Shown piece after piece: positions 13,876-63,954 of a DNA stretch of 64,000 bases; the first letter of the stretch is position 1, and each line of letters opens with the position of its first letter. The position numbers were made by a program, and so were the translations under genes. The DNA lies in NCBI RefSeq assembly GCF_044704955.1, contig NC_092006.1, positions 5,952,001 to 6,016,000 of the forward strand, in the 5' to 3' direction. Source of the stretch: Pristiophorus japonicus. Its lineage: Eukaryota. The notes beneath the pieces were generated by a model that saw only the letters and a list, made by a program, of their open reading frames with translations, was not told the DNA's origin and did not search any database.

Positions 13876-13923
13876 AACACAGTAACTGGATAGATTGGCC
13901 GCCCCTCCCTCCACCGCCCCTAC

Positions 13924-30090: not shown

Positions 30091-30147
30091 GGTTTACTCT
30101 CTCCTAACCCCTTCCTCACTCTGGCAAAACATCGAAGGCTATCTCAC

Positions 30148-37205: not shown

Positions 37206-37248
37206 ATGAGCTTCTGTGGCCTCTGTGTGCTGTTCCATCTCTTCCAAG
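37206..37248 (+). CDS. R3 signal peptide exon MSFCGLCVLFHLFQ
   Basis: ATG at 37206, G|GTGAGA, 43 nt. Confidence 0.85.
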
Positions 37249-37307
37249 GTGAGATAGCCTTCGATGTTTTGCCAGAGTGGGGAAGGGGTTAGGAGAGAGT
37301 AAACCAA

Positions 37308-40554: not shown

Positions 40555-40645
40555 GTAATCCCACACGTCCATCCAATTGTGCGTCGAGACACCAATTCAA
40601 ACCTGCCTTGTGCGCCTGGTTAATTCCAATTTCCCTTCCATCTAG

Positions 40646-40939
40646 CGGGCCCCCCGGTCCTCTTCCTCTTAACGCCGCCGCCGGCTGAGATTCCCCGGCT
40701 GGAGAGGGTGCCCTTGATGTGTCTGGTGCGGGGCGTTGCTCCCGACTCCTTCCCCATCCGCTGGCTGGTTGCCGAGGGACGGAGCGAGCCCGGGACGCTG
40801 GAGCCGGATGGGAGCTATACCGCCAGAAGCGTCCTGAGCATCTCGGCCGAAACCTGGCGCAGCGGCGCCGTCTGCACTTGCACCGTTCCGATCAACGCCA
40901 CCGGGGATCTCCTGAGTGAAAGCGTCGCGTCTCCGGGAG
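40646..40939 (+). CDS. R3 C1-set exon (in-frame 12 nt deletion relative to R2)
   Basis: tctAG / GTAACT, 294 nt, phase 1-1, open. Confidence 0.92.
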
Positions 40940-42177: not shown

Positions 42178-42294
42178 AGCCCCTTCACAGCTCGACCTGC
42201 CGCTTCGCGCTTTATGCCAGCCTGGCGATGGCTCCTCTTGTGATGGGGTTGATCGGTGTCGCGGTGGCACGGCGTGGCAAGACTCGCCAACCAG
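42178..42294 (+). CDS. R3 stalk/TM exon EPLHSSTCRFALYASLAMAPLVMGLIGVAVARRGKTRQP
   Basis: ctgccgttcAG / GTACTG, 117 nt, phase 1-1. PLHS..C at the start and TRQ at the end, as in R1. Confidence 0.85.
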
Positions 42295-42396
42295 GTACTG
42301 CCCGTCTGAGCCAAACCCTCAATTTCGCCTTTAGCTGAACCTCTCCCTTTGGCGTGCCGGCCTGGACATTAACGCCAGTCATCTTCTTAAACCTAG

Positions 42397-42455
42397 AGAG
42401 TGCAGCCACGACTGACCGAGGTACCGCTTCAAGAATAAAGAAAGCAGAAGAGGAG
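42397..42455 (+). CDS. R3 59 nt cytoplasmic exon (E)SAATTDRGTASRIKKAEEE
   Basis: cttcttaaacctAG / GTAGGT, phase 1 to 0, same size as R1 exon 5. Confidence 0.8.
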
Positions 42456-42715
42456 GTAGGTGCCACAAAGATGGGAGATGTTATTTTCATTAAAGAGCGG
42501 GGGGCGGGACTAATTGGATCATGCTTTCAAAGAGCCGACACAAGCTCGAAGGGCCAACTAGCCTCCTTCTGTGCTGTAAGATTCTATACTGGTGTCAAGT
42601 GTTTCATTGGTGTCCATGGACATGTCCGTTGTCAGTAACTTCAATGAGACATTCACATTAATACACTTGTGCCTCTCTCAGAAACAACCCAAAGCTATTC
42701 ACCTGCAATGAATTG

Positions 42716-43577
42716 CATAAGAACATAAGAACATAAGAATTAGGAACAGGAGTAGGCCATCTAGCCCCTCAAGCCTGCTCCGCCATTCAACAAGACCATG
42801 GCTGATCTGGCCGTGGACTCAGCTCCACTTACCCGCCCGCTCCCGTAACCCTTAATTCCCTTATTGGTTAAAAATCTATCTATCTGTGACTTGAATGCAT
42901 TCAATGAGCTAGCCTCAACTGCTTCCTTGGGCAGAGAATTCCACAGATTCACAACCCTCTGGGAGAAGAAATTCCTTCTCAACTCGGTTTTAAATTGGCT
43001 CCCCCGTATTTTGAGGCTGTGCCCCCTAGTTCTAGTCTCCCCGACCAGTGGAAACAAACTCTCTGCCTCTATCTTGTCTATCCCTTTCATTATTTTAAAT
43101 GTTTCTAGAAGATCACCCCTCATCCTTCTGAACTCCAACGAGTAAAGACCCAGTCTACTCAATCTATCATCATAAGGTAACCCCCTCATCTCCGGAATCA
43201 GCCTAGTGAATCGTCTCTGTACCCCTCCAAAGCCAGTATATCCTTCCTTAAGTAAGGTGACCAAAACTGCACGCAGTACTCCAGGTGCGGCCTCACCAAT
43301 ACCCTATACAGTTGCAGAAGGACCTCCCTGCTTTTGTACTCCATCCCTCTCGCAATGAAGGCCAACATTCCATTCGCCTTCCTGATTACCTACTGCACCT
43401 GCAAACTAACTTTTTGGGATTCATGCACAAGGACCCCCAGGTCCCTCTGCACCGCAGCATGTTGTAATTTCTCCCCATTCAAATAATATTCCCTTTTACT
43501 GTTTTTTTTCCCAAGGTGGATGACCTCACACTTTCCGACATTGTATTCCATCTGCCAAACCTTAGCCCATTCGCTTA
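42716..43577 (-). mobile_element. CR1 3' fragment
   Basis: ORF2 C-terminus and octamer tail. Confidence 0.9.
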
Positions 43578-43881
43578 ACCTATCTAAATCTCTTTGCAAC
43601 AGTGATGTCTTGCATTTAAATAGCGCCTTTGATGTCCTAAGGCGCTTCACAGGAGCATTAGTCAGACAAAAATTAAAGGCCGAACCCCACGAGGAGAGAT
43701 TACGACAGGTGAGCAAAGGCTTGGCCGAGGAGGGAGGTTTTAAGGAGGAGAGAGGGGCGGAGAGGTTTATGGAGGGAGTTCCAGAGCTTGGGACCCAGGC
43801 AGCTGAAGGCACGGCCACCGATGGTGGAGCGATTATAATCAGGGATGGTCAAGAGGGCAGAATTGGAGGAGAAGTAGGAGA

Positions 43882-44346
43882 TAGGGAGGGATGTAGATGC
43901 TGGAGGAGAGTACAGACATAAGGAGGGGTGTATGGGCTGGAGGAGGTTACAGAGATAGGAGGGGTGTAGGGGCTGGAGGAGGTTACAGAGATAGGGAGGG
44001 GTGTAAAGTCTAGAGGAGATTACAGAGATAGAGAGGGGTGTAGGGGCTGGAGCAGGTTACAGAGATAGAGAGGGGTGTAGGGCTGGAGGAGGTTACAGAG
44101 ATAGGGAGGGTATAGGGGTTGGAACAGGTTACAGAGATAGGGAGGGGTGTAGGGGTTGGAGGGGGTTACAAAGATAGGGAGGGGTGTAGGGGTTGGAGGG
44201 GGTTACAGAGATAGGGAGGGGTGTAGGGGCTAAAGGAGGTCACAGAGATAGGGAGGGATGTAGGGGCTGGAGGAGGTTACAGAGTTAGGGAGGGATGTAG
44301 AGGCTGGAGGAGGTTGCAGAGATATGGAGGGGTGTAGGACTGGAGG
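43882..44346 (+). repeat. 37 bp minisatellite, about 12 copies (GGGAGGGGTGTAGGGGCTGGAGGAGGTTACAGAGATA)
   Basis: Direct periodicity, followed by a partial SINE at 44350-44745. Confidence 0.85.
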
Positions 44347-44797
44347 AGAGGCAGTACTGAGGGAGCGCCGCACTGTCGGAGGAGCAGTACTGAGGGAACA
44401 CCGCACTGTCGGAGGGACCGTCTTTCGGCTGAGACGTTAAACCGAGGCACCATCTGCCCTCTCGGTTGTAAAAGATCCCGGGGCCACTGTTGGAAGAAGA
44501 GCAGGGGGAGTTCTCCCCGGTGTCCTGGGGCCAATATTTATCCCTCAACCAACATCACTAAAAACAGATGATCCGGGTCATTATCACATCGCTGTGTGTG
44601 GGAGCTTGCTGTGCGCAAATTGAGCTGCCGCGTTTCCCACAATACAACAGTGACTGCACTTCAAAAAGTACTTCATTGGCTGTAAGGCGCTTTGGGACGA
44701 CCGGTGGTGGTGAAGGGCGCTATAGAAATGCACGTCTATTTCCTTTCAATATAGTTGAGCAGGAAGGTAACGGTTTTTTCGTGTTGTTCCTTCACAG

Positions 44798-44833
44798 ACT
44801 ATGTACGCGCACCTGGCATTCGCTGTGGATTAG
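44798..44833 (+). CDS. R3 terminal exon TMYAHLAFAVD*
   Basis: ttccttcacAG, phase 0, TAG at 44831-44833, AATAAA near 45030. The full model is 888 nt, 295 aa. Confidence 0.85.
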   Translation, partial: TMYAHLAFAVD

Positions 44834-45207
44834 ACCGCATCGTGAGAGCGGGAAGGGTTTGCCGGATCGGAAGAGTTGGGGCCTTGAGAAATACAGCGCC
44901 CACTCGCCGCGCCCTCAGTCACAACCTGTGCACGGTGACCATTCACTCCAATGTCCCCGAACTCCCAGTGTGACTTTCCTCTGCCGGTAGTTTTGATCAA
45001 TCTTTGATTCTTGTCTTTATTAGCGTTGCAATAAAAACCATTTTATTCTCTTTACAACCTCATGCCCACTTTGAATGCATCCGTTATCAGACACAGAGAA
45101 GCGGAATTTATTGTTGAAATCGATGATACCTGTTGCTAAAGGGGCCAATTATCTCAGGATCTGTGTTCAGTTTAACTGTCAGAGGGACGAACGTGCATTT
45201 TATATCA

Positions 45208-45962
45208 CATAGAAACATAGAAACATAGAAAATAGGTGCAGGAACAGGCCATTCGGCCCTTCGAGCCTGCACCACCATTCAATATGATCATGGCTGATCA
45301 TTCACCTCAGTACCCCTTTCCTGCTTTCTCTCCATACCCCTTGATCCCTTTAGCCGTATCTAAAGGCCACATCTAACTCCCTCTTGAATATATCCAACGA
45401 CCTGGCCTCAACAACTCTCTGTGGTAGAGAATTCCACAGGTTCACAACTCTCTAGGTGAAGAAGTTTCTCCTCATCTCGGTCCTAAATGGCTTACCCCTT
45501 ATCCTTAGACTGTGAGCCCTGGTTCTGGACTTCCCCAACATCGGGAACATTCTACCCGTATCTAACCTGTCCAATCCCGTCAGAATTTTATATGTTTCGA
45601 TGAGATCCCCTCTCATCCTTCTAAACTCCAATGAATACAGGCCCAGTTGATCCAGTCTCTCCTCATATGTCAGTCCAGCCATCCCGAGAATCAGTCTGGT
45701 GAACCTTCGCTGCACTCCCTCAATAGCAAGAACGTCCTTCCTCAGATTAGGAGACCAAAACTGTACACAATATTCCAGGTGTGGCCTCACCAAGACCCTG
45801 TACATCCCGGGAATCAGTCTGGTGAACCTTCGCTGCACTCCCTCAATAGCAAGAACGTCCTTCCTCAGATTAGGAGACCAAAACTGAACACAATACTCCA
45901 GGTGTGGCCTCACCAAGGCCCTGTACATCCCGGGAATCAGTCTGGTGAACCTTCGCTGCACA
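45208..45962 (-). mobile_element. CR1 fragment with an internal 123 bp tandem duplication
   Basis: Period 123 (45691/45814/45937), giving a 41 aa repeat in the translation. Confidence 0.88.
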
Positions 45963-46059
45963 CCCCCAGCGGAATTTACAGCTATTTTCATTGTATCTAT
46001 AAACCAGTGACCCCTGCTTAAAGGGTCACACTCCAAATACTTTCAATCAAGTGTCCCCT

Positions 46060-46285
46060 TGGTTTTTTGGGTTTTTTTTTCTGAGGGCACCAAAAACACA
46101 AAGTATACAAGTGGCCCCCCTGACTAACTTAAACAAATTAAACTTTAAATATTGTGGTTGAAATGAACATTTGGTTGCCGGAGGGGTGGGGGGGGGGGTG
46201 ATGATGCACTCCAGTCCCTCGGGCGCCCACCTCTCGCGGAAGGCCGCGAGGTACCGGTGGACACCGCGGAAGAGAACGCGCTTTA
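46060..46285 (-). mobile_element. Short Tx1-like LINE 3' end
   Basis: AFRERWAPEGLECII followed by a UTR and A-rich tail. Confidence 0.55.
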
Positions 46286-46569
46286 CAACCTTCGCGTTGG
46301 AGCTTGTGGGATCTTCCTGTGCGCCAAAGTGGCAGCCGCATGTCGCTACATTGCACTGGTGGCCACACTTCAAGATAAAAAGTGCGTTCATTGGCCGGGA
46401 AGCAGGGCGGGATGTCCCTCGCTCCTTGTGTGCCGCGACAGAAGACCGAAAGTCTTTCCTGACTGGTCACAATGGAAACGCTGCACAACATCTTTTGGTC
46501 AAGTTGTACTCAACACACACAGTTCCAGTTAGTTAACGGAGGGGAAATATACTTGCAACCCAGGGTGGA

Positions 46570-47450
46570 GCTTTGGAGGCAGTTCAGAGAAGGTTCACTC
46601 GGTCGATTCCGGAGATGAGGGGGCTTGACTTATGAGGAAAGGTTGAGCAGGTTGGGCCTCTACTCATTGGGATTCAGAAGAATTGAGAGGTGATCTTATC
46701 GAAACGTGTAAGACTATGAGGGGGCTCGATAGCGGGACCCGGGAGTACTTGTGCATGAAACACAAAAGGTTAGTATGCAGGGACAGCAAGTGATCAGGAA
46801 GGCCAATGGAATCTTGGCCTTTATTGCAAAGGGGATGGAGTATAAAAGCAGGGAGGTCTTGCTACAGTTATGCAGGGTATTGGTGAGGCCACACCTGGAA
46901 TACTGCGTGCAGTTTTGGTTTCCATATTTCCGAAAGGATATACTTGCTTTGGAGACAGTTCAGAGAAGGTTCACTCGGGTTGATTCCGGAGATGAGGGGG
47001 TTGACTTATGAGGAAAGGTTGAGTAGGTTGGGCCTCTACTCATTGGAATTCAGAAGAATGAGAGATGATCTTATCGAAACGTGTAAGATTATGAGGGGGC
47101 TTGACAAGGTGGATGCAGAGAGGATGTTTCCACTGATGGGGGAGACTAGAACGCGGGGTCATGATCTTAGAATAAGGGGCCACCCATTTAAAACTGAGAT
47201 GAGGAGGAATTTTTTCTCTGAGAGGGTTGTAAATCTGTGGAATTCGCTGCCTCAGAGAGCTGTGGAAGCCGGGACATTGAATAAATTTAACACAGAGATA
47301 GACGGTTTCTTAACCGATACGGGGATAAGGGGGCGGGCAGGGAAGTGGAGCTGAGTCCATGATTGGATCAGCCACGATCGTATTGAATGGCGGAGCAGGC
47401 TCGAGGGGCCGAATGGCCTACTCCTGCTCCTATTTCTTATGTTCTTATGA
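46570..47450 (+). mobile_element. CR1 3' fragments
   Basis: ORF2 C-terminus and tail. Confidence 0.88.
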
Positions 47451-47699
47451 TTCCAGTGTACAATACTACCACCTTCACCTCGTATGAGAATTAAACACAT
47501 ACTTATACAGGGGCTCAAAGGGTTAAATTGTGTGGGCAGTTTGCACAGATGTGGCTTGATTTCCTCGATTATAGAAGATTAAGTGGTCAACCAATTGAAG
47601 CATTTAATTTGCTTGAAGGGTTGATAGGGTCGAAAGAGAGAAATTATTTCCTCTGTTGGGGGAATCCAGAACAAGGGGATGTAACTTTAATTTTAAAGC

Positions 47700-49640
47700 A
47701 AGTAAGACTTGCATTTATATAGTGCCTTTCACGACAACCGGACATCCCAAAGCGCTTTACAGCCAATGAAGTACTTTTCGGAGTGTGGTCACTGTTGTAT
47801 TGTGGGAAACACAGCAGCCAATTTACGCACAGCAAGCTCCCACACACAGCAATGTGATAATGACTCAGAACATGATGTTGGCCGAGGGATAAATATTGGC
47901 CCCAGGACACCGGGGAGAACTCCCCCTGCTCTTCTTCGAAATAGTTCCGTGGAATCTTTTACGTCCGCTTGAGAGGGCAGACGTGGCCTCGGTTTAATGT
48001 CTCATCTAAAAGACAGCACCTCTGATAGTGCTGCGCTCCCTCAGTCCTACCCCTCCAACAGTGCGGCGCTCCCTCAGTACCGCCCCTCCGACAGTGCGGC
48101 GCTCCCTCAGTACTGCCCCTCCGACAGTGCGACGCTCCCTCAGTACTGCCCCTCCGACAGTGCGACGCTCCCTCAGTACTGCCCCTCTGACAGTGCGGCA
48201 CTCCCTCAGTACTGCCCCTCCGACAGTGCGACGCTCCCTCAGTACTGCCCCTCCGACAGTGCGGCACTCCCTCAGTACCGCCCCTCCGACAGCGCGGTGC
48301 TCCCTCAGTACTGCCCCTCCGACAGTGCTGTGCTCCCTCAGTACTGCCCCTCTGACAGCGCGGTGCTCCCTCAGTACCGCCCCTCCGACAGTGCGGCACT
48401 CCCTCAGTACCGCCCCTCCGACAGTGCTGTGCTCCCTCAGTACTGCCCCTCCGACAGTGCGGCACTCCCTCAGTACTGCCCCTCCGACAGTGCGGCGCTC
48501 CCTCAGTACTGCCCCTCCGACAGTGCGGCGCTCCCTCAGTACCGCCCCTCCGACAGCGCGGTGCTCCCTCAGTACTGCCCCTCCGACAGTGTGGCGCTCC
48601 CTCAGTACTGCCCCTCCGACAGTGCGGCGCTCCCTCAGTACCGCCCCTCCGACAGCGCAGTGCTCCCTCAGTACCGCCCCTCCGACAGCGCGAGGCTCCC
48701 TCAGTACTGCCCCTCCGACAGTGCGGCACTCCCTCAGTACTGCCCCTCCGACAGTGCGGCGCTCCCTCAGTACTGCCTCTCTGACAGCGCGGCGCTCCCT
48801 CAGTACTGCCCCTCCGACAGCGCGGCGCTCCCTCAGTACTGCCCCTCCGACAGCACGGTGCTCCCTCAGTACTGCCCCTCCGACAGTGCAGCGCTCCCTC
48901 AGTACCGCCCCTCCGACAGTGCGGCGTTCCCTCAGTACCGCCCCTCCGACAGTGCGACGCTCCCTCAGTATTGCCCCTCCGACAGTGCGGCGCTCCCTCA
49001 GTACCGCCCCTCTGACAGCGCGGCGCTCCCTCAGTACTGCCCCTCCGACAGCGCGGCGCTCCCTCAGTACTGCCCCTCCGACAGCGCGGCGCTCCCTCAG
49101 TACCGCCCCTCTGACAGCGCGGCGCTCCCTCAGTACTGCCCCTCCGACAGCGCGGCGCTCCCTCAGTACTGCCCCTCCGACAGCGCGGTGCTCCCTAAGT
49201 ACTGCCCCTCCGACAGAGCGGCGCTCCCTCAGTACCGCCCCTCCGACAGCGCGGCGTTCCCTCAGTACCGCCCCTCCGACAGCGCAGCGCTCCCTCAGTA
49301 CCGCCCCTCCGACAGCGCGGCACTCCCTCAGTACCGCCCCTCCGACAGTGCGGCGTTTCCTCAGTACTGCCCCTCCGACAGCGTGGCGCTCCCTCAGTAC
49401 TGCCCCTCCGACAGCGTGGCGCTCCCTCAGTACTGCCCCTCCGACAGCGTGGCGCTCCCTCAGTACTGCCCCTCCGACAGCGCGGCGCTCCCTCAGTACT
49501 GCCCCTCCGACAGTGCAGCGCTCCCTCAGTACTGCCCCTCCGACAGCGCGGTGCTCCCTCAGTACTCCAGTGGAGTGTCTGCCTGGATCTTTTGTGCTTG
49601 AGTCCCCGGAGTGGAACGTGAACCCACAACCTTGTGACTA
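47700..49640 (-). mobile_element. Deu-SINE with the 33 bp unit expanded to about 47 copies (48020-49565)
   Basis: SINE tail, core and head flank the array CAGTACTGCCCCTCCGACAGTGCGGCGCTCCCT. Confidence 0.85.
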
Positions 49641-50174
49641 AGAGGGGCATTGAGGGTTATACGGATAGAGTGAGATGAGGAAAGACGGGAGGAGGCTCGA
49701 GTGGGGCATAAACGCCGGCACGGACTGGTTGGGCCGAGTGGCGTGTTTCGGTGGCGTATACCCGCTGTAATCCGTGTGATGGTACAAGTGCTGATCCCTA
49801 GCAGTGGCCACACCACTCAGTTTAAGCGGGATGCGCTGATTTGCGACGTGCGTCAGAATAAATTGGAGCACGAAGCGTGTTGTCTGGACCACGCTGACCG
49901 TTCCCCATCAATCCCGCCCAGAAGATGTGGGTATCAGACCCGTGGAGGTATACCCTGTGGGATCTGAGGGTTACTGTGCCTCAGTGCCGAAACGTGGCCG
50001 ATGATCGCGACTGATCAGGTTAAACTGACGCAGTACGCCGGGGATGTCACAATACGGGCTCCACTGGTACCTGTACATTGCAACAACTTGCATTTATTTG
50101 CCTCCTGTAACATCCCAAGGAGCGTTATCACACTGGAGTAATGTGCACAATTCTGGCCACCGCACCACGAACAC

Positions 50175-52750
50175 AAGAACTAGGAGCAGGAGTCGGCCAT
50201 ACGGCCCCTCGAGCCTGCTCCACCATTCAATACGATCCTGGCTGATCCGATCATGGACTCAGCTCCACTTCCCCACCCGCTCCCCGTAACCCTTCACTCC
50301 CTTATCGCTCAAAAACCTGTCTATCTCCGCCTTAAATATATTCAATGACCCAGCCTCCACAGCTCTCTGGGGCAGAGAATTCCACAGATTTACCACCCTC
50401 GGAGAGAAAAAATTCCTCCTCATCTCAGTTTTAAATGGGCGGCCCCTTATTCTAATACCATGCCCCCTAGTTCTAGTCTCCCCCATCAGTGGAAACATCC
50501 TGTCTGCATCCACCTTGTCGAGCCCCCTCATTATCTTATACGTTTTGATAAGATTACCTCTCATTCTTCTGAACTGCAATGAGTAGAGGCCCAACCTCCT
50601 CAAACAATCCACATAAGACAACCCCCTCATCTCTGGAATCAACCGAGTGAATCTTCTTTGAGCTCCCTCCACAGCAAGTGTATCCTTCCTTAAATACGGA
50701 GACCAAAACTGCATGCAGTACTCCAGGTGTGGCCTCACCAATACCCTGTACAGTTGTAGCAGGACTTCCCTGCTTTTATACTCCATCCCCCTTTGCAATA
50801 AAGGCCAAGATTCCATTGGCCTTCCTGATCACTTGCTGTACCTGCATACTAACCTTTTGTGTTTCATGCACAAGGACCCCCAGGTCCCGCTGTACTGCAA
50901 CACTTTGCAATTTTTCTCCATTTAAATTATAATTTGTTTTTCTATTATTTCTGCCATTTTCCCACATTATACTCCATCTGCCAAATGTTTACCCATTCAC
51001 TTAGCCTGTCTATATCCCTTTGCAGATTTTTTGTGTCCTCCTCACAACTTGCTTTCCCTCCCATCTTTGTATCATCAGCAAACTTGGCTACACTACACTC
51101 TGTCCCCTCTTCCAGGTCATCTATGTATATTGTAAACAGTTGTGGTCCCAGCACCGATCCCTGTGGCACACCACTAACCACTGATTTCCAACCCGAAAAG
51201 GACCCATTTATCCCGACTCTCTGCTTTCTGTTCGCCAGCCAATTCTCTATCCATGCTAATACATTTCCTCTGACTCTGCATACCTCTATCTTCTGCAGTA
51301 ACCTTTTGTGTGGCACCTTATCGAATGCCTTTTGGAAATCTAAATACACCACATCCATCGGTACACCTCTATCCACCATGCTCGTTATATCCTCAAAGAA
51401 TTCTAGTAAATTAGTTAAACATGATTTCCCCTTCATGAATCCATGCTGCGTCTGCTTGATTGCACTATTCCTATCTCGATGTCCCGCTATTTCTTCTTTA
51501 ATGATAGTTTTCAAGCATTTTCCCCACTACAGATGTTAAACTAACCGGCCTATAGTTACCTGCCTTTTGTCTGCCCCCTTTTTTAAACAGAGGCGTTACA
51601 TTAGCTGCTTTCCAATCCACTGGTACCTCCCCAGAGTCCAGAGAATTTTGGTAGATTATAACGAATGCATCTGCTATAACTTCCACCATCTCTTTTAATA
51701 CCCTGGGATGCATTTCATCAAATCCACGGCCTTCTGTTTACCGACCCACCTGCCCCTGTGAACAGCATGTCCGTATTTGCTCGATTCAAAACCCTTCGTC
51801 ATTTTGATGTGGGAGACTTGCAGAAAGCAGAACGGGGTTTAAAATGAGCGTGGAAAAGGGATTAGAAATGGCACTTTGTAGGGCACTTTAAAGAGGTGAC
51901 GCACTCCCTTTAAAATGTGAAGGCCGTCTTGTCCAATGGAGATTGTGTGTCCTTCAATCACAGAATCACAGAAATTTACAGCGCGGGAGGAGGCCATTCG
52001 GTCCATCGTGTCCGTGCCGGCCGACCAAGAGCCACCCAGCCTAATCCCACTTTCCAGCTCTCAGTCCGGAGCCTTGTAGGTTACGACACTTCAGGTGCAC
52101 ATCCAAATGTGGTGAGGGTTTCTGCCTCTACCACCCTTTCAGGCAGTGAGTTCCTCCCCAGATCCCCACCACCATCTGGGTGAAGACATTTCCCCTCAAA
52201 TCCCCTCTAAACCTCTCCCCCAATTACTTTCAATCTCTGTCCCCTGGTTGTTGACCCCTCTGCCGAGGGAAACAGGTCCGTCCTATCCACTCTATCCAGG
52301 CCCCTCATCATTTTACACCCCTCAACAAGGTCTCCCCTCTGTTCCAAAGAAAACAACCCCAGCCTATCCACAGGAACATAAGAAATAGGAGCAGGAGTCG
52401 GCCATTCGGCCCCTCGAGCCTGCTCCGCCATTTAATACGATCATGGCTGATCCGATCATGGACTCAGCTCCACTTCCCTGCCCGTCCCCTTATCCCCTTA
52501 TCGGTTAAGAAATTGTCTCTCTCTGTCTTAAATATATTCAATGTCCCAGCCTCCACAGCTCTCTGGGGCAGAGAATTCCACAGATTTACCACCCTCTGAG
52601 AGAAGAAATTCCTCCTCATCTCAGTTTTAAATGGGCGGCCCCTTATTCTAAGATCGTGCCCCCTAGTTCTAGTCTCCCCCATCAGTGGAAACATCCTCTC
52701 TGCATCCACCTTGTCAAGCCCCCCTCATAATCTGATACGTTTCGATAAGA
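50175..52750 (-). mobile_element. CR1 fragments: RT-containing 50175-51720 (frameshifted) and 51955-52750
   Basis: [25 protein letters not shown]. Confidence 0.9.
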
Positions 52751-52949
52751 TCGCCTCTCATTCTTCTGAATGACAGGGCAGAGGTCGCCAGAGAGGCGTG
52801 CTGTCCCTTTAAATGGCAGGACCAGATTTGCCGACTGGCGACACACTGTCCCTTTAAACGCCAGCTTCCTCTGTCGGCTGATCCTGGGAAAACAAGGGGC
52901 CCCTTTCTTCAGCCCTCTGCCAATCAGCTCGCTCCGACAAGGCGAAAGA

Positions 52950-53077
52950 CTTGCTGCAGCCTCGAGCTCCTGTGACAGCGCAGAGCAGGCAGGAGAGGGG
53001 CAGGGAGGGGTGTAAGAGTGAGGGGGGGTGGCGCAGCGGAGAGAGAAGGGGGCTGGGAGCTGGCCGCTGGCTACACG

Positions 53078-53114
<37 letters not shown>

Positions 53115-53208
53115 GTGACAGTCACCATGAGCAGTCGCGACTCTCAGGGGCGACGCAGTCCGGAGTAGAGGGAGAGAGACAGCTACCACTTTGCAGCACA
53201 ACAGGTTG
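52950..53208 (+). other. PAQR6: Probable non-coding first exon and GC-rich promoter of PAQR6 (start approximate)
   Basis: GC-rich unique island among repeats, ending in donor TTG|GTGAGT at 53209. The next PAQR6 exon has an acceptor and therefore needs an upstream exon. The linkage is inferred. Confidence 0.45.
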
Positions 53209-53276
53209 GTGAGTTCCCCAGTTAAACCTCTTTACAAACTGTCTGTTTCAAGTCATTCCCAGAGCAACAGACTCGA

Positions 53277-55670
53277 CGGCCGGACATCCCAAAGCGCTTT
53301 ACAGCGAAGTACTTTTGTGGTCGCTGTTGTAATGTGGGAAACGCGGCAGCCAATTTGCGCACAGCAAGCTCCCACACACAGCGACGTGATAATGACCCGG
53401 ATCATCTGTTTTCGTGATGTTGGTTGAGGGATAAATATTGGCCCCAGGACACTGGGGAGAACTCCCCCTGCTCTTCTTCCAATAGTGGTCCCGGGATCTT
53501 TTACATCCACCCGAGAGGGCAGACGGGGCCTCGGTTTAATGTCTCATCTGAAAGACGGCACCTCCGACAGTGCGGCACTCCCTCAGTACCGCCCCTCTGA
53601 CAGTGCGGCGCTCCCTCAGTACCGCCCCTCCGACAGTGCGGCGCTCCCTCAGCACTGCCCCTCCGACAGTACGGCGCTCCCTCAGTACCGCCCCTCCGAC
53701 AGTGCGGCGCTCCCTCAGTACCGCCCCTCCGACAGTGCGGCGCTCCCTCAGCACTGCCCCTCCGAGAGTACGGCGCTCCCTCAGTACCGCCCCTCCGACA
53801 GTGCGGCGCTCCCTCAGCACTGCCCCTCCGACAATACGGCGCTCCCTCAGTACCGCCCCTCCGACAGCGCAGTACGGCGCTCCCTCAGTACTGCCCCTCC
53901 GACAGCGCAGTACGGCGCTCCCTCAGTGTCGCCCCTCCGACAGAGCAGTGCGGCGCTCCCTCAGTACTTCCCCTCCGACAGTGCGGCGCTCCCTCAGTAC
54001 TGCCCCTCCGACAGCTCAGTACGGTGCTCCCTCAGTACTGCCCCTCCGACAGCGCAGTACGGCGCTCCCTCAGTACTGCACTGGGAGTGTTGGCCTAAAT
54101 TTTTGTGCTTGAAGTCTCTGGAGTGGGATAACCATCTGAATCGGAGGCGAGAGTACTACCCACTGAGCCACGGCTGACAATAGCTGACTGAAAGCGAACA
54201 AGCCTCAACTATCTTTCAAACAAATGCTTCTGCAAATTAAGTTGTGCGGGAACTTTACATAACATGTTGTGTTTCAGATCGAAAAAGGCTTAAGGAAATG
54301 AAAAATAAAATATACACAGGCTGAGCAAAAGTTGTGGCAACTTGTAAATGTTCTTTTATGCAGCCCCAGGGGAGGAGATGGAGTTGTTGCTCGGGTTTCT
54401 GGAAGAGCTACGGCAGAGGTCAGGGTTCATGGGGAGCGGGGGTCAGGGGTCAACGAGCAGAATGGACAGAAAGATGGCTGCAAAAACAGGGTGGGATTTT
54501 TAGGAAGATTCCGCGGGATGGCGATAAGCAGGAAGTGATTTTCCGCAGGGGCCCGCACCGAGACCCCTGGTGTTCACACATCGAAAAGACGTGTATTTCT
54601 ATAGCGCCTTTCACAACATCAGGATGTCCCAAAGCACTTCACAGCCAATGAAGTACTTTTGGAGTGTGGTCACTGTTGTATTGTGGGAAACGCGGCAGCT
54701 CAATTTGCGCACAGCAAGCTCCCACACACAGCCATGTGATAATGACCCAGATCATCTGTTTTAGTGATGTTGGTTGAGGGATAAATATTGGCCCCAGGAC
54801 ACCGGGGAGAACTCCCCCTGCTCTTCTTCCAATAGTGGCCCCGGGATCTTTTACATCCACCCGAGAGGGCAGACGGGGCCTCGGTTTAACGTCTCATCCG
54901 AAAGACAGCACCTCCGACAGTGCGGCACTCCCTCAGTACTGCCCCTCCGACAGTGCGGTGCTCCCTCAGTACCGCCCCTCCGACAGTGCGGCGCTCCCTC
55001 AGTACCGCCCCTCCGACAGTGCGGCGCGCCCTCAGTACCGCCCCTCCGACAGTACGGCGCTCCCTCAGTACCGCCCCTCCGACAGCGCAGTACGGCGCGC
55101 CCTCAGTACAGCCCCTCCGACAGTACGGCGCTCCCTCAGTACTGCCCCTCCGACAGTGCGGCACTCCTTCAGTACTGTCCCTCCGACAGCGCAGTACGGC
55201 GCTCCCTCAGCACTGCCCCTCCGACAGCGCAGTACGGCGCTCCCTCAGCACTGCCCCTCCGACAGCGCAGTACGGCGCTCCCTCAGCACTGCCCCTCCGA
55301 CAGCGCAGTACGGCGCTCCCTCAGCACTGCCCCTCCGACAGCGCAGTACGGCGCTCCCTCAGCACTGCCCCTCCGACAGTGCGGTGCTCCCTCAGCACTG
55401 CCCCTCCGACAGCGCAGTACGGCGCTCCCTCAGCACTGCCCCTCCGACAGCGCAGTACGGCGCTCCCTCAGCACTGCCCCTCCGACAGTACGGCGCTCCC
55501 TCAGCACTGCCCCTCCGACAGCGCAGTACGGCGCTCCCTCAGCACTGCCCCTCCGACAGCGCAGTACAGCGTTCCCTCAGTACTGCCGCTCCGACAGCGC
55601 AGTACGGTGCTCCTTCAGCACTGCCCCCTCCGACAGCGCAGTATGGCGTTCCCTCAGTACCGACAGTGCG
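53277..55670 (-). mobile_element. Two Deu-SINEs (53277-54178; 54590-55670) with mixed 33/38 bp arrays
   Basis: Same core. The variant unit carries an extra GCAGT. Confidence 0.82.
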
Positions 55671-55679
55671 GCGCTCCAG

Positions 55680-56110
55680 ACCCTGGACTGCTGATCCGGA
55701 GACCCGGGTTCAAATCCCACCACAGCAGCTGGGGAATTTAAATTCAGTTCATGAAATAAACCTGGAATTTTTTTTAAAAAGCGAGTATCAGTGAATGGGT
55801 GACCATGAAACTACGGGATTGGCGTTAAAACCCATCTGGTTCACTAATGTCCCTTTTAGGAAAGAAAATCTGTCGCCCTTACCCGGTCTGGCCGATATGT
55901 GACTCCACAGACCCACAGCGATGGGGTTGACTCTGAACTGTCCCTCTGAAATGGACTAGCGAGACACCCAGACACACAGTCACTGTGGGAACACCTTCAC
56001 CACACGGACTGCAGCGGTTCAAGAAGGTGGCTCACCTTCTCAAGGGGCAATGAGGGACGGCCAATAAATGCCGGCCTTGCCAGCCACGCCCACATCCCGT
56101 GAACCAATAG
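55680..56110 (+). mobile_element. Second tRNA-derived SINE family
   Basis: B-box GGTTCAAATCC and tail AATAAATGCCGGCCTTGCCAGC..CCCACATCCC. Reverse pieces at ~23420-23625 and ~24715-24905. Confidence 0.6.
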
Positions 56111-56204
56111 ATTAAAGGAAAGATTGAGCAGGCTAGGGAAGATTGATTGCGAGGGGACCAGATCGAGGGGATCGAAGTGATGAAAGGGGTTCCATACATA
56201 AAAC

Positions 56205-58957
56205 AGAAAACATAGAAAATAGGTGCAGGAGCAGGCCATTCGGCCCTTCGAGCCTGCACCACCATTCAATAAGATCATGGCTGATCATTCCTTCAGTACC
56301 CCTTTCCTGCTTTCTCTCCATACCCCTTGATCCCCTTCACCGTAAGAGCCATATCTAACTCCCTCTTGAATATATCCAGTGAACTGGCCTCAACAACTCT
56401 CTGCGGCAGGGAATTCCACAGGTTAACAACTCTCTGAGTGAAGAAGTTTCTTCTCATCTCAGTCCTAAATGGCTTACCCCTTATCCTAAGACCACGTCCC
56501 CTGGTTCTGGACTTCCCCAACATCGGGAACATTCTTCCCGCATCTAACCTGTCCAGTCCCGTCAGAATCTTATATGTTTCTATGAGCTCCCCTCTCATCC
56601 TTCTAAACTCCAGTGTGCTGACGTGGATTGAGAACTGGTTGGCAGACAGGAAGCAAAGAGTAGGAGTAAATGGTATTTTTCAGAATGGCAGGCAGTGACT
56701 AGTGGGGTACCGCAAGGTTCTGTGCTGGGGCCCCAGCTCTTTACAATATATATTAATGATTTAGACGAGGGGATTAAATGCAGATGACACTAAGCTGGGT
56801 ATCAGTGTGAGCTGTGAGGAGGACGCTAAGAGGCTGCAGGGTGACTTGGACAGGTTAGGTGAGTGGGCAAATGCATGGCAGATGCAGTATAATGTGGATA
56901 AATGTGAAGTTATCCACTTTGGGGGCAAAAAACACGAAGGCAGAATATTATCTGAATGGCGGCAGATTAGGAAAAGGAGAGGTGCAACGAGACCTGGGAG
57001 TCATGGTTCATCAGTCATTGAAAGTTGGCATGCAGGTACAGCAGGCGGTGAAGAAGACAAATGGTATGTTGGCCTTCATAGCTAGGGGATTTGAGTATAG
57101 GAGCAGGGAGGTCTTACTGCAGTTGTACAGGGCCTTAGTGAGGCCTCACCTGGAATATTGTGTTCAGTTTTGGTCTCCTAGTCTGAGGAAGGACGTTCTT
57201 GCTGTTGAGGGACTCCATAGGCTCGAGACTGTTTCCAGAGTTCTGGGTGAGTCCAGAACTCGGGGACATAAACACAAGATAGTCACCAACAGGTCAAATA
57301 AAGAATTTAGGGGGGATTTCGTTCGACCAGAGAGTGGTGAGAATGTGGGGCGCGTTACCGCAGTGAGTGGTCGCGCTTTGACGTATTTCAGGGGAGGGTT
57401 GATGCATACACGAGGGAGAAAGGAATAGAGGGGTACAGGGGCAAGGTGGGAAGAGGTTATCAGAGTGAAAGGAGACTCGTGTGGAGCATAGACCAGTTGG
57501 GCCAAACGGCCATTCCTTCGCTCCACCATTGGCGGCCATGTCTTCAGCTGCCTGGGCTCCAAACCCTATAATACGTGGACCTCATCATAGGGGGTCCCTC
57601 GAAGCGAGGATGACTTGCTTCCCCACCAAAAGGGATGAGTTCACAGATGTTTCAATGAAGGACCCGATGTTCCAGTCCTGAACTCCAATCGAAGGAGTGG
57701 AAATATAGAAACATAGAAAATAGGGGCAGGAGTAGGCCATTCGGCCCTTCGAGCCTGCACCACCATTCAATGAGTTCATGGCTGAACATGCAACTTCAGT
57801 ACCCCATTCCTGCTTTCTCGCCATACCCCTTGATCCCCGAGTAGTAAGGACTTCATTTAACTCCTTTTTGAATATATTTAGTGAACTGGCCTCAACTACT
57901 TTCTGTGGTAGAGAATTCCACAGGTTCACCACTCTCTGGGTGAAGACGTTTCTCCTCATCTCGGTCCTAAATGGCTTACCCCTTATCCTTAGACTGTGAC
58001 TCCTGGTTCTGGACTTCCCCAACATTGGGAACATTCTTCCTGCATCTAACCTGTCTAAACCCGTCAGAATTTTAAACGTTTCTATGAGATCCCCTCTCAT
58101 TCTTTTGAACTCCAGTGAATACAGGCCCAGTTGATCCAGTCTTTCTTGATATGTCAGTCCCACCATCCCTGGAATCAGTCTGGTGAACCTTCGCTGCACT
58201 CCCTCAATAGCAAGAATGTCCTTCCTCAAGTTAGGAGACCATAACTGTACACAATACTCCAGGTGTGGCCTCACCAAGGCCCTGTACAACTGTAGTAACA
58301 CCTCCCTGCCCCTGTACTCAAATCCCCTCGCTATGAAGGCCAACATGCCATTTGCTTTCTTAACCGCCTGCTGTATCTGCATGCCAACCTTCAATGACTG
58401 ATGTACCATGACACCCAGGTCTCGTTGCACCTCCCCTTTTCCTTATCTGTCACCATTCAGATAATAGTCTGTCTCTCTGTTTTTACCACCAAAGTGGATA
58501 ACCTCACATTTATCCACATTATACTTCATCTGCCATGCATTTGCCCACTCACCTAACCTATCCAAGTCACTCTGCAGCCCCATAGCATCCTCCTCGCAGC
58601 TCACACTGCCACCCAACTTAGTGTCATCTGCAAATTTGGAGATACTACATTTAATCCCCTCGTCTAAATCATTAATGTACAGTGTAAACAGCTGGGGCCC
58701 CAACACAGAACCTTGCAGTACCCCACTAGTCACTGCCTGCCATTCTGAAAAGTACCCATTTACTCCTACTCTTTGCTTCCTGTCTGACAACCAGTTCTCA
58801 ATCCACGTCAGCACACTACCCCCAATCCCATGTGCTTTAACTTTGCACATTAATCTCTTGTGTGGGACCTTGTCGAAAGCCTTCTGAAAGTCCAAATATA
58901 CCACATCAACTGGTTCTCCCTTGTCCACTCTACTGGAAACATCCTCAAAAAACTCCA
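56205..58957. mobile_element. CR1 fragments (56205-56612 -, 56613-57212 +, 57705-58957 -)
   Basis: RT and C-terminal motifs, with frameshifts. Confidence 0.9.
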
Positions 58958-59494
58958 GATACCTGTGGGTGGATTTATTTAACGTGGGGTGACCGTTGCA
59001 CACCAGCCACCACACGGGGCTTGACAGAGCGAGGTCTTGGTCCAGGGGCAAGGGTTAACCAGGACGACTGGAGACCAGCTCTGCTGCACGGACCCAGTGC
59101 GCGCACATATCGCACAGTGTGGGCTGGGCCCCCGTGCTGCCCCTGGGCCCTCGCCTCTTCTGGGCCCCCTTACGCTCATTCGCCGCACCTCCGCGCCAAA
59201 CATTCCTCGCACCTCCGTCACGACCACGCGCCGAATCTCAGCCACGATCGCTCAGCACTCCCGCGCACCGGTCATTTGCCGCATTTCTCCCTCGATTTCT
59301 CGCCGCTTCTCCGCCTCAAACGTTCGCTGCAGCTCCGCCACGACCCATCGCCGCTCTGCCGCTCCGACCTACCCGCTCCTCCGCTGTACCTGGGCCCCGC
59401 CGGTGCTCCTGCCCCCGCTCCAAACAGCGTCCTGGGTTTCGATGACCTCATCCAGCATATATGCACCGGTTTGTCGAGCTGTTGAGTTGGGCGG

Positions 59495-59703
59495 GGCTTA
59501 GCCAGTCACGTGACGTTCCCAAGACTCAATAAAACCCCGGCCAGTTGGGTTCGGGGGATCCACGATAGGGCAGATGGTTGTGAGCCTGGTGGATGAACTG
59601 GTAATGTGTGGTGTGATTGTTAAACCTTTGCTCATAAACCAACTAGTTCTTAATAGCAAATGTGAATTCTTAAGCAAAGAACCCATGAAGCAAATGCATT
59701 ACA
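59495..59703 (+). mobile_element. Possible partial solo LTR
   Basis: Unique block with an E-box, AATAAA/CATAAA and a terminal ..TTACA. No partner LTR is seen. Confidence 0.3.
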
Positions 59704-60725
59704 CCCTCCCTAAACCTCTCCACCCCTCTCTCCTCCTTTAAGACGCTCCTTAAAATGTATCCCTCAATCAACATAACAAAAAAACAGATGATCTGGGTCA
59801 TTGTCACATTGCCGTTTGTGGGAGCTTGCTGTGCGCAAATTGGATGCTGCGTTTCCCACATTACAACAGCGACTACACTCCAAAAGTACTTCATTGGCTG
59901 TAAAGCGCTTTGAGACGTCCGGTGGTCGTGAAAGGCGCTATATAAATGCAAGTCTTTCTTTTTTCAAAGCGACCTCTTTGAGCAAGCTGTTCGTCACCTG
60001 TTCCAGTATCTACCCATGTGGCTCGGTGTTAAATGTTGTCTGATAATCGCTCCTGTGAAGCACCCTGGGACGTTTGACCAAGTTTATCATCATCATAGAC
60101 AGTCCCTCGGAATCGAGGAAGACTCGCTTCCACTCTAACAATGAGTCCTCAGGTGGCTGAACAGTCCAATAAGAGAGCCACAGTCCCCGTCACAGGTGGG
60201 ACACACAGTGGTTGAGGGAAGGGGAGGGTGGGACAGGTTTGCCGCACGCTCCTTCCGCTGCCTGCGCTTGGTTTCCGCACACTCTCGGCGACGAGACTCG
60301 AGGTGCTCAGCGCCCTCCCGGATGCACTACCTCCACTTAGGGCAGACTGGTCTTTGGCCAGGGACTCCCAGGTGTCGGTGGGGAGGTTGCACTTTATCAG
60401 GGAGGGTTTCCCTTGTAGCGTTTCCTCTGCCCCCCCTCCTTTGGCTCGTTTGCCGTGAGGGAGTTCCGTGTAGAGCGCTCGCTTTGGGAGTGCTGTATGA
60501 AGGTAAATTGTTGTAGGGTTGTTAAAGGAATTGCCTCATGGTTTGCTGCCTTTGATCTAAAACTACCTCTAACTTGTTTCCTGCAGACAGGCACTGGACA
60601 GGCAATGGAGGTGAGGAAGAGAAGGTGAGGAAGGCACCAGACTGGGCTACCTTGGTCCTCCAAGACTGGACACCTACAGGAAAACCAGGGTAGTGCGCCA
60701 GCTAGTACGGGAACAGGACTCCGAG

Positions 60726-60776
60726 ATGTTAACAGTCAAATTGCCCCACCTCTTAAACAATCACCAAGTCCCGAGA
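60726..60776 (+). CDS. PAQR6: PAQR6 (membrane progestin receptor delta) first coding exon MLTVKLPHLLNNHQVPR
   Basis: 51 coding nt, donor GTAAGT, acceptor tttcctgcAG at 60585-60586. Resembles the PAQR5/6 N-terminus MLSLKLP..HQVPR. Confidence 0.88.
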
Positions 60777-61033
60777 GTAAGTCCGGTGTAACTGACATCT
60801 CGTCCAAACGTTCACTAATTACCCCCCGACAGTGGCCATAAAATCTCTTACGCCTCCCACGTTAAACAAGCAAACCTTGCATGGGACACCCACCTCCTGC
60901 CCTCAGACCTTACTTCCTGTTGTCGCAGGTTCCAGTCACGCTGTTGTGACATCAAGCCCAGTGCTAACTTGCTATGTTCACATTGCCCAATCAGTTTTTG
61001 CTATGTAAACGGTCACGGAGTAGTTTCAGACTC

Positions 61034-61244
61034 TGGCCACTTGATGGCGCTGCAGAGCAGTTTACTAAAGTTTCTCTCCTCCCGATTCCAGCACCAGTCT
61101 TGTAATGTATATAAAACAAAACTAAATATTCTACAACTGACTGTGTGAAATTTCAAACATTTTGTAAAATTCGTATCATTTATCTGACCCTCTTTCAGAT
61201 AACATTTATAGTTCCTGATCACTCACTCATGCCCCCTGCTGGAG
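61034..61244. promoter_or_regulatory. Two oppositely oriented CTCF-like motifs in a PAQR6 intron
   Basis: TGGCCACTTGATGGCGCTG (+, 61034-61052) and CTCCAGCAGGGGGCAT (-, 61244-61229). Confidence 0.4.
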
Positions 61245-61284
61245 ATAGCTAGGCACACACATGTAACCAGACATCCACACAAGA

Positions 61285-61918
61285 ACACAGGGACAGGAGG
61301 AGGCCATTCAGTCCCTCGAGCCTGTTCCGGCATTCAATGAGATCATGGCTGATCATTCACCTCAGTACCCCTTTCCTGCTTTCTCTCCATACCTCTTGAT
61401 CCCTTAAGCCGGAAGGGCCACATCTAACTCCCTCTTGAATATATTTAACGAACTGGCCTCAACAACTTTCTGTGGTAGAGAATTCCACAGGTTCACAATT
61501 CTCTGAGTGAAGAAGTTTCTCCTCATCTCGGTCCTAAATGGCTTACCCCTTATCCTTAGACTGTGACCCCTGGTTCTGGACTTCCCCAACATCAGGAACA
61601 TTCTTCCTGCATCTAACCTGTCTGAACCCGTCAGAATTTTATATGTTTCTATGAGATCCCCTCTCATCCTTCTAAATTCCAGTGAGTATAAGCCCAGTCG
61701 ATCCAGTCTCTCCTCATATGTCAGTCCTGCCATCCCGGGAATCAGTCTGCTGAACCTTCGCTGCACTCCCTCAATAGCAAGAACATCCTTCCTCAGATTA
61801 GGAGACCAAAACTGAACACAATGCTCAAGGTGTGGTCTCACAAAGGCCCTGTACAACTGCAGTAAGACCTCCCTGCTCCTATACTCAAATCCCCTAGCTA
61901 TAAAGGCCAACATACCAT
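61285..61918 (-). mobile_element. CR1 3' fragment
   Basis: ORF2 C-terminus. Confidence 0.9.
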
Positions 61919-62349
61919 ATACCCGCCTGTGTTCTGTTAGTCTTAATACCTTTGTCTCAAATTCAATTGTATAATCACAAACGTATTATCTCTGATGAAC
62001 CTGCAGAATTTGGCAGCATAATAGAATGGAAATGTTGCATTTATAAAGTATTCCTTCATGTGTTTACGTGGTAACCTGTTTTATTATATTATATGTCGGC
62101 AAAAAGATGTATTTTTAATAAGGTTTAACCTGTTTTAAAATCATTGAAGGTGACTTTATAAAAGAAACTATACTGCACCATTTAATAGTTTCAATGGGGT
62201 GTACGCCAGTCAGTTTCTTAGAAAATTGAATTATTTTTTGATAGGAAAAAACTTGTAAAACGTTCCTGCCAGTGTACCTCAAAAATTGAGCGCGATTTGA
62301 AGATCGCTGTTGAAAAAGCACAATGGGCGGAGCTTCGCGATTTGTCCTG

Positions 62350-62580
62350 AGGGGGCGTGGCTACTTTTGGAGGCGTGACCAGTGTTGGAGGCGTGGCCAG
62401 TGTTGGAGGCGTGACCAGTGTTGGCGGCGTGACCAGTGTTGGGGGCGTGGCCGGTGTTGGGGGCGTGACCAGTGTTGGAGGCGTGGCCGGTGTTGGAGGC
62501 GTGACAGTGTTGGAGGCGTGGCCACTGTCGGGGGAGTGGCCGGTGTTGGAGGCGTGGCCGGTGTTGGGGGCGTGGCCAGG
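62350..62580 (+). repeat. 18 bp minisatellite, about 12 copies (TTGGAGGCGTG(A/G)CCAGTG)
   Basis: Period 18 (62367/62385/62403). Confidence 0.85.
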
Positions 62581-62821
62581 TTTGTGGGTGGGACTGTACC
62601 CATCGACATTGGGTCTTGAACCGACGTAAAATTCCCCCAGTCTTTCGGGCTGGTTCCATCGGGTTCGCGCAGTACTGGCGTAACCTTGTGGAAATTCTAC
62701 CGCAGTGTCAATTCAGCACTCAGTCGGAAACCTCGCCTCTCTTCGGCTGACCCCAGAACGGAGGAGGCTGCAAAGTGATCCCCAGGATCTGTAGCCCGTC
62801 CTCAACTCAATCCACCTCTCC

Positions 62822-63803
62822 TGGTGTTGGCCATATCTCAGTGGGTAACACCCTGCCCTCTGGGTCAGAAGGTCGTGTGTTCGAGCCTCCGCTCCAGAGA
62901 CTTGAGCCTCGTAATCCAGGCTGGTGCTCTCAGTGCCAGTACCGAGGGAGCGGTGCATTGAGGGGCAGTACTGAGGGAGTGCCGCACTGTCGGAGGGGCG
63001 GTACTGAGGGAGTGCCGCACTGTCGGAGGGGCGGTACTGAGGGAGCGCCACACTGTCGGAGGGGCAGTACTGAGGGAGCGCTGCACTGTCGGAGAGGCGG
63101 TACTGAGGGAGCGCCGCACTGTCGGAGGGGCAGTACCGAGGGAGCGCCGCACTGTCGGAGGGGCGGTACTGAGGGAGTGCCACACTGTCGGAGGGGCGGT
63201 ACTGAGGGAGCGCCGCACTGTCGGAGGGGCGGTACTGAGGGAGCGCCACACTGTCGGAGGGGCAGTACTGAGGGAGCACGGCACTGTTGGAGGGGCGGTA
63301 CTGAGGGAGCGCCGCACTGTCAGAGGGGCGCTACTGAGGGAGTGCCGCACTATCGGAGGGGCGGTACTGAGGGAGCGCCGCACTGTCGGAGGGGTGGTAC
63401 TGAGGGAGTGCCGCACTGTTGGAGGGGCGGTACTGAGGGAGCGCCGCACTGTCGGAGGGGCGGTACTGAGGGAGCGCCACACTGTCGGAGGTGCCGTCTT
63501 TCGGATGAGACGTTAAACCGAGGCCCCGTCTGCCCTCTCGGGTGGATGTAAAAGATCCCGGGGCCACTATTGGAAGAAGAGCAGGGGGAGTTCTCCCCGG
63601 TGTCCTGGGGCCCAATATTTATCCCTCAACCAACAGGTGACCTGGGTCGTTGTCACATTGCTGTTCTTGGGATCTTGCTGTGCGCAAATTGGCTGCCGCG
63701 TTTCCTACACTTCGAAAAGGTACCCCATTGGCTGTGAGGCGCTTGGGGACGCCTGGAGGAGGTGAGAGGTGCTATAGGAATGCAAGTGCTTTTTCTTTCT
63801 TTA
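62822..63803 (+). mobile_element. Deu-SINE with about 16 copies of the 33 bp unit
   Basis: Head, array, core and tail. Confidence 0.82.
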
Positions 63804-63826
63804 CTTTGTGTTTCTGCGATGTCCAG

Positions 63827-63954
63827 GTTTTCCGCGAAGACGGAATCATCTCTGGATATCGGCACCCAAAAAGCTCGGCCATGGACTGCCTCCTCAGCAC
63901 CTTTCAAATGACCAATGAGACACTTAACATTTGGACCCACTTCCTCCCTACGTG
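63827..63954 (+). CDS. PAQR6: PAQR6 second coding exon VFREDGIISGYRHPKSSAMDCLLSTFQMTNETLNIWTHFLPTW (gene continues beyond the window)
   Basis: tgtccAG / GTATGT, 128 nt. PAQR motifs SGYR and NETxNIWTH. EDGI.SGY, DC and HFLPTW favour PAQR6 over PAQR5. Confidence 0.92.

Follow-up and report, generated by a model that had tools for sequence, protein, structure and literature searches.

An intact PAQR6 gene beside a tandem array of V-J-joined, C1-domain receptor genes on a small chromosome of the shark Pristiophorus japonicus

Non-rearranging genes that encode a joined V-J domain and a C1 domain (VJ-C1 genes) are the main candidates for the form of the antigen receptor in the time before RAG transposition, and where they map has been used as evidence that antigen receptors originated in the major histocompatibility complex (MHC). 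PRARP, attributed to Fu et al. (2019), and Xenopus VJC1, attributed to Ohta et al. (2019), reportedly share a single-exon V-J, a C1 domain, a transmembrane (TM) segment and a tail with tyrosine motifs, and lymphocyte surface expression and dimer formation are counted among their reported features as well; the 2019 work of Ohta and colleagues is also said to have mapped the Xenopus VJC1 gene to a region resembling human 1q21-23. Here, a 64,000-nt window of the Pristiophorus japonicus genome was analysed (C32:5,952,001-6,016,000, where C32 is contig NC_092006.1, 15.0 Mb within a 5.9-Gb genome; other chromosomes are named likewise). A larger cluster of V-J-joined receptor genes reaches into the window with its final three and a half genes, and these are followed by the start of PAQR6. 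With good confidence, we read the locus as an intact PAQR6 gene lying beside tandem four-gene cassettes of V-J-joined, C1-domain membrane receptors, which are likely inhibitory and have likely kept their place on one small non-MHC chromosome from a time before the divergence of sharks and bony fishes.

The array genes resemble PRARP/VJC1 in having V-J in one germline exon without a recombination signal sequence (RSS), a C1 domain, a TM segment and a tail similar to immunoreceptor tyrosine-based inhibitory or switch motifs (ITIM/ITSM). In addition, relatives of the array family occur in bony fish, amphibians, reptiles and birds. The two differ in number, since a pair of genes is known there and at least 28 genes in four-gene cassettes were found here. 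On this comparison, the array family is probably the published PRARP/VJC1. PMC11599192 merely lists PRARP, while Verissimo 2023 lists it among VJ genes ‘in the MHC’, which is at odds with the C32 locus. UrIg and UrIg2 (PMC12227049) are also shark genes with a germline-joined VJ exon and C1 domains, but their C1 domains are numerous and their location is the MHC or the antigen-receptor complex. The UrIg-like genes of P. japonicus map to C19 and C4, and UrIg-like rows fall outside the array family in the tree described below; identity of the array with UrIg/UrIg2 was rejected on tree position, chromosome and domain number. An atlas comparison of the array proteins returned only generic V-C1 clusters. 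No report of linkage between PAQR6 and the receptor family was found in the literature, which is not proof that it is unpublished, as supplements may hold it.

The gene to the right of the array is, judged from its sequence, an intact PAQR6 and not PAQR5. The initial annotation had noticed two PAQR6-like exons about 16 kb beyond the last receptor gene, R3, and both were borne out (Table 1), the ATG lying ∼15.9 kb beyond the R3 stop codon. The query with the second exon gave 218 protein matches, the best named ones being PAQR6. The full gene model has seven coding exons (51, 128, 206, 127, 97, 145 and 272 bp) that encode 341 aa; the last five lie outside the window and reach C32:6,042,710. The public record P0318, named mPR-delta of P. 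japonicus, has the identical sequence, so the gene had been annotated before; taken by itself, PAQR6 is unremarkable. In a 33-row tree the gene nested within the PAQR6 clade (support 99/100), together with chondrichthyan PAQR6 proteins (100/96). The model was 64-82% identical to 16 proteins named PAQR6, versus 56-62% to 11 named PAQR5, and PAQR5 was rejected on both the tree and the identity ranges. A separate PAQR5-like gene was found on C17; its exon sizes match, it is 69% identical, and it fell outside the PAQR6 clade, among the rows named PAQR5. The tree check thus upheld the name that had been given to the gene. A further frame of the PAQR family, apparently single-exon and broken by an insertion resembling a long interspersed element (LINE), was observed at C6:225,366,522-225,369,638 (locus L003).

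Each receptor gene of the window has a TM segment and a TxYAxL-type tail. The joined V-J exons are 339 bp long and end in an FGxG-type J motif; that of R0, the fourth gene, is 309 bp and has a degenerate J. The V and C1-domain exons of R0 lie just left of the window (∼C32:5,947,090-5,947,810), and the leader exon of R1 was not located. R3 gave Pfam V-set and C1-set matches and a protein match to P0121; its last exon, which begins at position 44798, encodes TMYAHLAFAVD*. In 864 kb of C32, neither an RSS nor an immunoglobulin light chain (IgL) gene was found; the RSS pattern gave four matches after V exons resembling those of T cell receptor (TCR) gamma, which served as a positive control. Spliced transcription was observed for one receptor class: a contig (run X5; library type not on record) joins V, C1-domain, TM and tail exons; it comes from an R3-class copy other than the R3 of the window.

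The use of PAQR6 as an anchor for finding the family in other vertebrates, proposed in the initial annotation, proved sound. Relatives, picked by similarity alone, were seen in sturgeons, bichir, gar, lungfish, coelacanth, caecilian, newt, turtles, gecko, ostrich and hawk. For 22 relatives and 9 PAQR6 proteins that were looked up, along with the visible lengths of their records, equal length was taken to mean the same record and accession order to mean gene order. On this basis PAQR6 and the family lie on equal-length records in 12 of the 15 comparable species (horn shark, white shark, sawfish, stingray, devil ray, three sturgeons, bichir, caecilian, flatback turtle and ostrich), 8 of the 12 records being shorter than 25 Mb. 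The length match in lungfish, a round 2-Gb value, was uninformative, and paddlefish and Chinese sturgeon, with short scaffolds, gave no match. On both homeologs of beluga and Atlantic sturgeon, the accession numbers of PAQR6 and a family gene differ by 6-8; in flatback turtle they differ by at least 62. A tree of V plus C1 domains separated 30 family rows from 9 outgroup rows (Ig, TCR, UrIg and SIRP-like) by a branch with 85/87 support, and within the family an R0-type and an R1-3-type lineage each included bony vertebrates, with moderate support. Four rows without the trimming motif had been dropped from this tree, and the gar and newt rows are among those absent. Outside the array, the seven matching places sampled in P. 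japonicus were TCR-gamma-, IgL-, UrIg- and IgNAR-like, and none of the outside matches sampled was an ohnologous copy of the family on C1, C17 or C18. A sawfish family member (P0152, XP_051901910) is one accession below XP_051901911, listed as sawfish IgL sigma-2 in PMC12227049; the sawfish family may thus border on an IgL locus, unless the label or the neighbouring numbers are a coincidence.

The initial annotation had placed the VJ-C1 family in an MHC paralogon and had seen the locus as agreeing with the idea of a primordial immune complex. The distribution of framework genes in P. japonicus contradicts the former and gives no support to the latter. None of 13 PBX, 4 NOTCH, 7 RXR and 41 MHC class I matches lies on C32. 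The PBX matches are on C8, C20, C24, C19 and unplaced scaffold sequence, with one weak match on C18; those of NOTCH are on C8 (NOTCH2-like), C19, C24 and scaffold sequence (NOTCH1-like); and those of RXR are on C8, C19, C20 and scaffold sequence. The NOTCH2-like, PBX and RXR matches of C8 occur together at 136-141 Mb, and the class I matches form a cluster on C19. The absence of these markers from C32 is persuasive for the sole reason that NOTCH, PBX and RXR were found on other chromosomes, namely C8, C19, C20 and C24. Paired link-domain loci are present on C1, C17, C18 and C32, and NTRK-type matches on C1 and C17. C32 thus belongs to a C1/C17/C18/C32 ohnolog quartet that does not include the MHC chromosome.

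The published reconstructions point the same way. Lamb 2021 assigns NTRK1, ANKRD35, MEF2D and LMNA to paralogon 7 (chicken chr25, gar LG24), and PBX1, RXRG, NOTCH2 and BRD2 to paralogon 9, with PBX1 and RXRG on chicken chr8 and gar LG10. C32 resembles quadruplicate C of paralogon 7 (chicken chr25, gar LG24, human 1q21-q23.1) in having an ANKRD35/UACA-type gene beside PAQR6 and a link-domain pair with partners on C1, C17 and C18. It differs in that PAQR5/6 gave no hits in the searched part of the tables of Lamb 2021, so that C32 is assigned through its neighbours; BCAN, CLK2, SCAMP3, HAPLN2, GABPB2 and ARNT gave no hits in that part either. According to the same paper, human 1q holds both blocks, and Xenopus chr8 has NTRK1 together with RXRB and PBX3; this shared location likely explains why the two 1q blocks were formerly lumped. 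Nakatani 2021 regards a large proto-MHC chromosome as an artefact of fusions. The initial annotation had also invoked the CD1 and SLAM genes of human 1q as an MHC-paralogous setting, a view at odds with Verissimo 2023, in which the CD1 block of human chr1 is a translocation from the MHC and SLAMF lies on white-shark chr19, the MHC chromosome.

The idea that the array sits in an MHC paralogon produced by two rounds of genome duplication (2R), its position confirming a primordial immune complex, draws on the listing of human chr1 among the four MHC-paralogous regions and on the linkage of tetrapod VJ-C1 genes to MHC paralogs, both given in Verissimo 2023, and the neighbours of PAQR6 on C32 do map to human 1q. 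We nevertheless think it very unlikely, as the chr1-type framework set (NOTCH2-like, PBX and RXR) is on C8 and not on C32, C32 is part of another quartet, Lamb 2021 parts the 1q blocks (chicken chr8 versus chr25, gar LG10 versus LG24), and the large proto-MHC chromosome is itself doubted by Nakatani 2021. It is harder still to credit that array and PAQR6 adjoin through an error of assembly, or by a chance placement peculiar to this species and without evolutionary meaning. Some 560 kb of array sequence recur nearly letter for letter, suggesting false duplication, and the arrangement of PAQR6 and SMG5 differs from that in bichir; but the assembly is continuous from the array to PAQR6, and the linkage recurs in the 12 species listed above.

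The main rival is an origin in the proto-MHC followed by a very early translocation to a C32-type chromosome, before the divergence of sharks and bony fishes, the CD1/SLAM block perhaps making the move at a later time. MHC linkage is documented for UrIg-like and other VJ genes, and C19 carries one of the UrIg-like type; the CD1 region of chr1 has been described in print as a translocation from the MHC (Verissimo 2023); and the lack of ohnologs on C1, C17 and C18 among the sampled outside matches would fit an arrival after 2R. Against this, no class I match lies on C32 and in white shark SLAMF has stayed on the MHC chromosome, so that the receptor family did not travel with the CD1/SLAM block; the family does not group with the UrIg-like rows; and neither IgL nor RSS turned up in the 864 kb of C32. 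On balance we hold such a translocation to be unlikely, though by far the most serious of these competitors. Several further points weigh against residence on a non-MHC chromosome since before the shark/bony-fish split. Profile searches of the genome itself were insensitive and miss genes: MEF2 gave three matches, none on C32 or C17, the lamin tail gave one, not on C32, no NTRK-type match lies on C32, and PMF1 gave no match anywhere; C32 is only 15 Mb and is gapped. The assignment to PRARP/VJC1 comes from architecture and taxon range; no record carrying either name turned up. Linkage in other species comes from record lengths and accession order, not coordinates, and four of the 12 records measure 75-341 Mb. 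Finally, family monophyly is moderately supported and not starred, and the outgroup labels beyond IgW are the analyst's reading.

If the residence of the receptors on a non-MHC chromosome is old, the family would be a long-standing inhabitant of the human 1q21-q23.1/chicken chr25 block that was amplified locally as cassettes. Extending this, we tentatively propose, somewhat short of holding it probable, that a two-lineage, non-rearranging VJ-C1 family is an original inhabitant of an ancestral microchromosome outside the MHC (paralogon 7C), dating from the last common ancestor of jawed vertebrates, and was there at a time when SLAM and class I genes had not yet left the MHC; the antigen-receptor architecture would thus have existed and diversified outside the proto-MHC, reaching at least 28 genes in this shark, with one V domain under diversifying selection. 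Should this be true, PRARP/VJC1 would no longer be evidence for a primordial immune complex. The locus supplies a shark-to-bird anchor for one VJ-C1 family, and the chromosome that carries it is no MHC ohnolog. What had been a loose argument can thereby be put to the test, with native origin and early translocation as the two options.

The array as a whole consists of 12 four-gene units (R0+, R1-, R2-, R3+) over C32:4.72-6.0 Mb, ∼1.3 Mb in all. Five of these units recur at an offset of exactly 559,609 bp, with no mismatch in 30 kb and one in ∼32 kb. The ∼560 kb involved (∼C32:4.79-5.90 Mb), tandemly repeated nearly letter for letter, raise the gene count from 28 to 48. Such near identity makes false duplication likely, which leaves seven distinct units and 28 genes. 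The V and C1-domain exons are open in 25 of the 28 genes and contain stops in three; the other exons were checked in the window genes. Among the seven copies of the R0 V exon there were 21 nonsynonymous and no synonymous variants (P = 0.003), an excess found in one of eight domain tests, and the R0 V domain thus appears to be under diversifying selection. Many of the variants (loci L043, L051, L067, L071, L075, L079 and L083) lie near predicted loops; the corresponding counts for the R0 C1-domain exon were 5 versus 6. The ∼110-kb cassette would have been amplified by unequal crossing-over in repeat-rich DNA. As judged from their motif, phosphorylated TxYAxL tails would be expected to bring in phosphatases of the SHP type, and the array receptors would likely act as inhibitory immune receptors. 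PAQR6 would be a positional neighbour and marker, not a functional partner.

Table 1. Coordinates of the PAQR6 exons, receptor genes and intergenic features in the window (position 1 is C32:5,952,001).
Feature	Position	Strand	Details
PAQR6 coding exon 1	60726..60776	+	51 bp, ATG and GT donor; MLTVKLPHLLNNHQVPR; 78-83% identity to named shark/chimaera PAQR6
PAQR6 coding exon 2	63827..63954	+	128 bp, AG/GT; best named matches PAQR6/mPR-delta, 88-93%
R3	37206..44833	+	Leader 37206-37248; V-J 40216-40554; C1 domain 40646-40939; TM 42178-42294; cytoplasmic 42397-42455; tail 44798-44833 (TxYAxL)
R2	22379..30190	-	Inverted sister of R3; leader at 30190; V-J 27771-28109; C1 domain 27374-27679; TM near 25107; tail TLYAQL at 22423
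R1	9997..16866	-	V-J 16528-16866; C1 domain 16148-16450; TM near 14017; tail TLYAQL at 10074; Pfam-supported
R0 (fourth gene), TM and tail exons	1782..3688	+	Tail TFYASL; TM matches end of P0122
Repeat-filled interval between R3 and PAQR6	44834..60725	.	LINE-like and short interspersed element (SINE)-like sequences, tandem repeats
Unique GC-rich stretch past the array edge	52776..53273	+	Unique in self-comparison; CA repeat, donor-like end

Sequence present at least twice elsewhere within 264 kb makes up 77% of the interval between R3 and PAQR6. A six-frame listing of open reading frames (ORFs) and a codon-model scan of the unique parts revealed no credible coding exon in it, although very short or non-coding exons would escape both. 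A hidden gene was rejected on these grounds, in agreement with the claim that none intervenes. Homology to the previous array unit stops at about window position 51,400, which sets the edge of the array ∼9 kb from the PAQR6 ATG. No N occurs from R3 to the 3′ exons of SMG5, the first gap being at C32:6,190,092. The unique GC-rich stretch might, as a guess, be a candidate PAQR6 promoter or non-coding first exon. Contigs aligned to the interval included none that joins this stretch to PAQR6 and showed no PAQR6 joint, which is no evidence either way.

To the right of PAQR6 lie an EIF3J-like gene, an RXFP3-family G protein-coupled receptor (GPCR), an ANKRD35/UACA-type ankyrin/coiled-coil gene, SMG5 (- strand), a TMEM79-like gene, GLMP, CCT3 and a thioredoxin-domain gene; to the left of the array are a dermatopontin-domain exon, PEX11, a Ras-family gene, SCAMP, a P450 gene and CLK2, and a TCP-1 gene is also among the C32 neighbours. 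The labels EIF3J-like, ANKRD35/UACA-type, TMEM79-like, GABPB-like and CYP11-like are provisional; for the CYP11-like gene Pfam gave p450 alone, and the TMEM79-like gene was recognised by eye, without a Pfam hit. The label RXFP4 for the GPCR was dropped, RXFP3 scoring 315 bits versus 263 bits for RXFP4. The human counterparts of most C32 neighbours are at 1q21-22. Of the 1q21-23 genes expected next to PAQR6, SMG5 and the TMEM79-like gene were thus present, as were GLMP, CCT3, CLK2, PEX11 and SCAMP, while PMF1 and BGLAP did not turn up in the flank scans; the PMF1 profile had no match in the whole genome, and no profile search was aimed at BGLAP.

PAQR6 and SMG5 are arranged tail-to-tail here, ∼140 kb and at least three genes apart, whereas a bichir gene model (P0057) runs from SMG5 straight to PAQR6 exon 2. 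A local inversion would have parted PAQR6 from SMG5 and brought the 5′ end of PAQR6 against the array. Because of this presumed inversion, the exact abutment of array and PAQR6 is probably not ancient and looks lineage-specific. The claim that the array directly abuts PAQR6 thus stands for this assembly, with no N and no coding exon found in between, but probably not as an ancestral arrangement.

Some minor observations concern MHC class I and IgL sequences elsewhere in the genome. Nine class I matches at C3:316.6-319.3 Mb and locus L102 span both peptide-binding domains without an intron; at L102 one open frame comprises a leader, alpha1-3, TM and tail. These intronless matches, which lie off the MHC chromosome C19, may have arisen as retrocopies that were then amplified. 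Further matches to class I are on C2, C5, C6, C11, C13 and C17. IgL-like genes, some with joined V-J, were seen at C8:146-179.5 Mb (L127, L128 and L134), on the chromosome that carries the NOTCH2-like, PBX and RXR matches. On C32 itself, the EIF3J-like, PDI-like, CYP11-like and Ras-like genes (L007-L008, L063, L106-L107 and L032), whose nearest human relatives are presumably on 15q, may be ohnologs that sharks retained but mammals did not.

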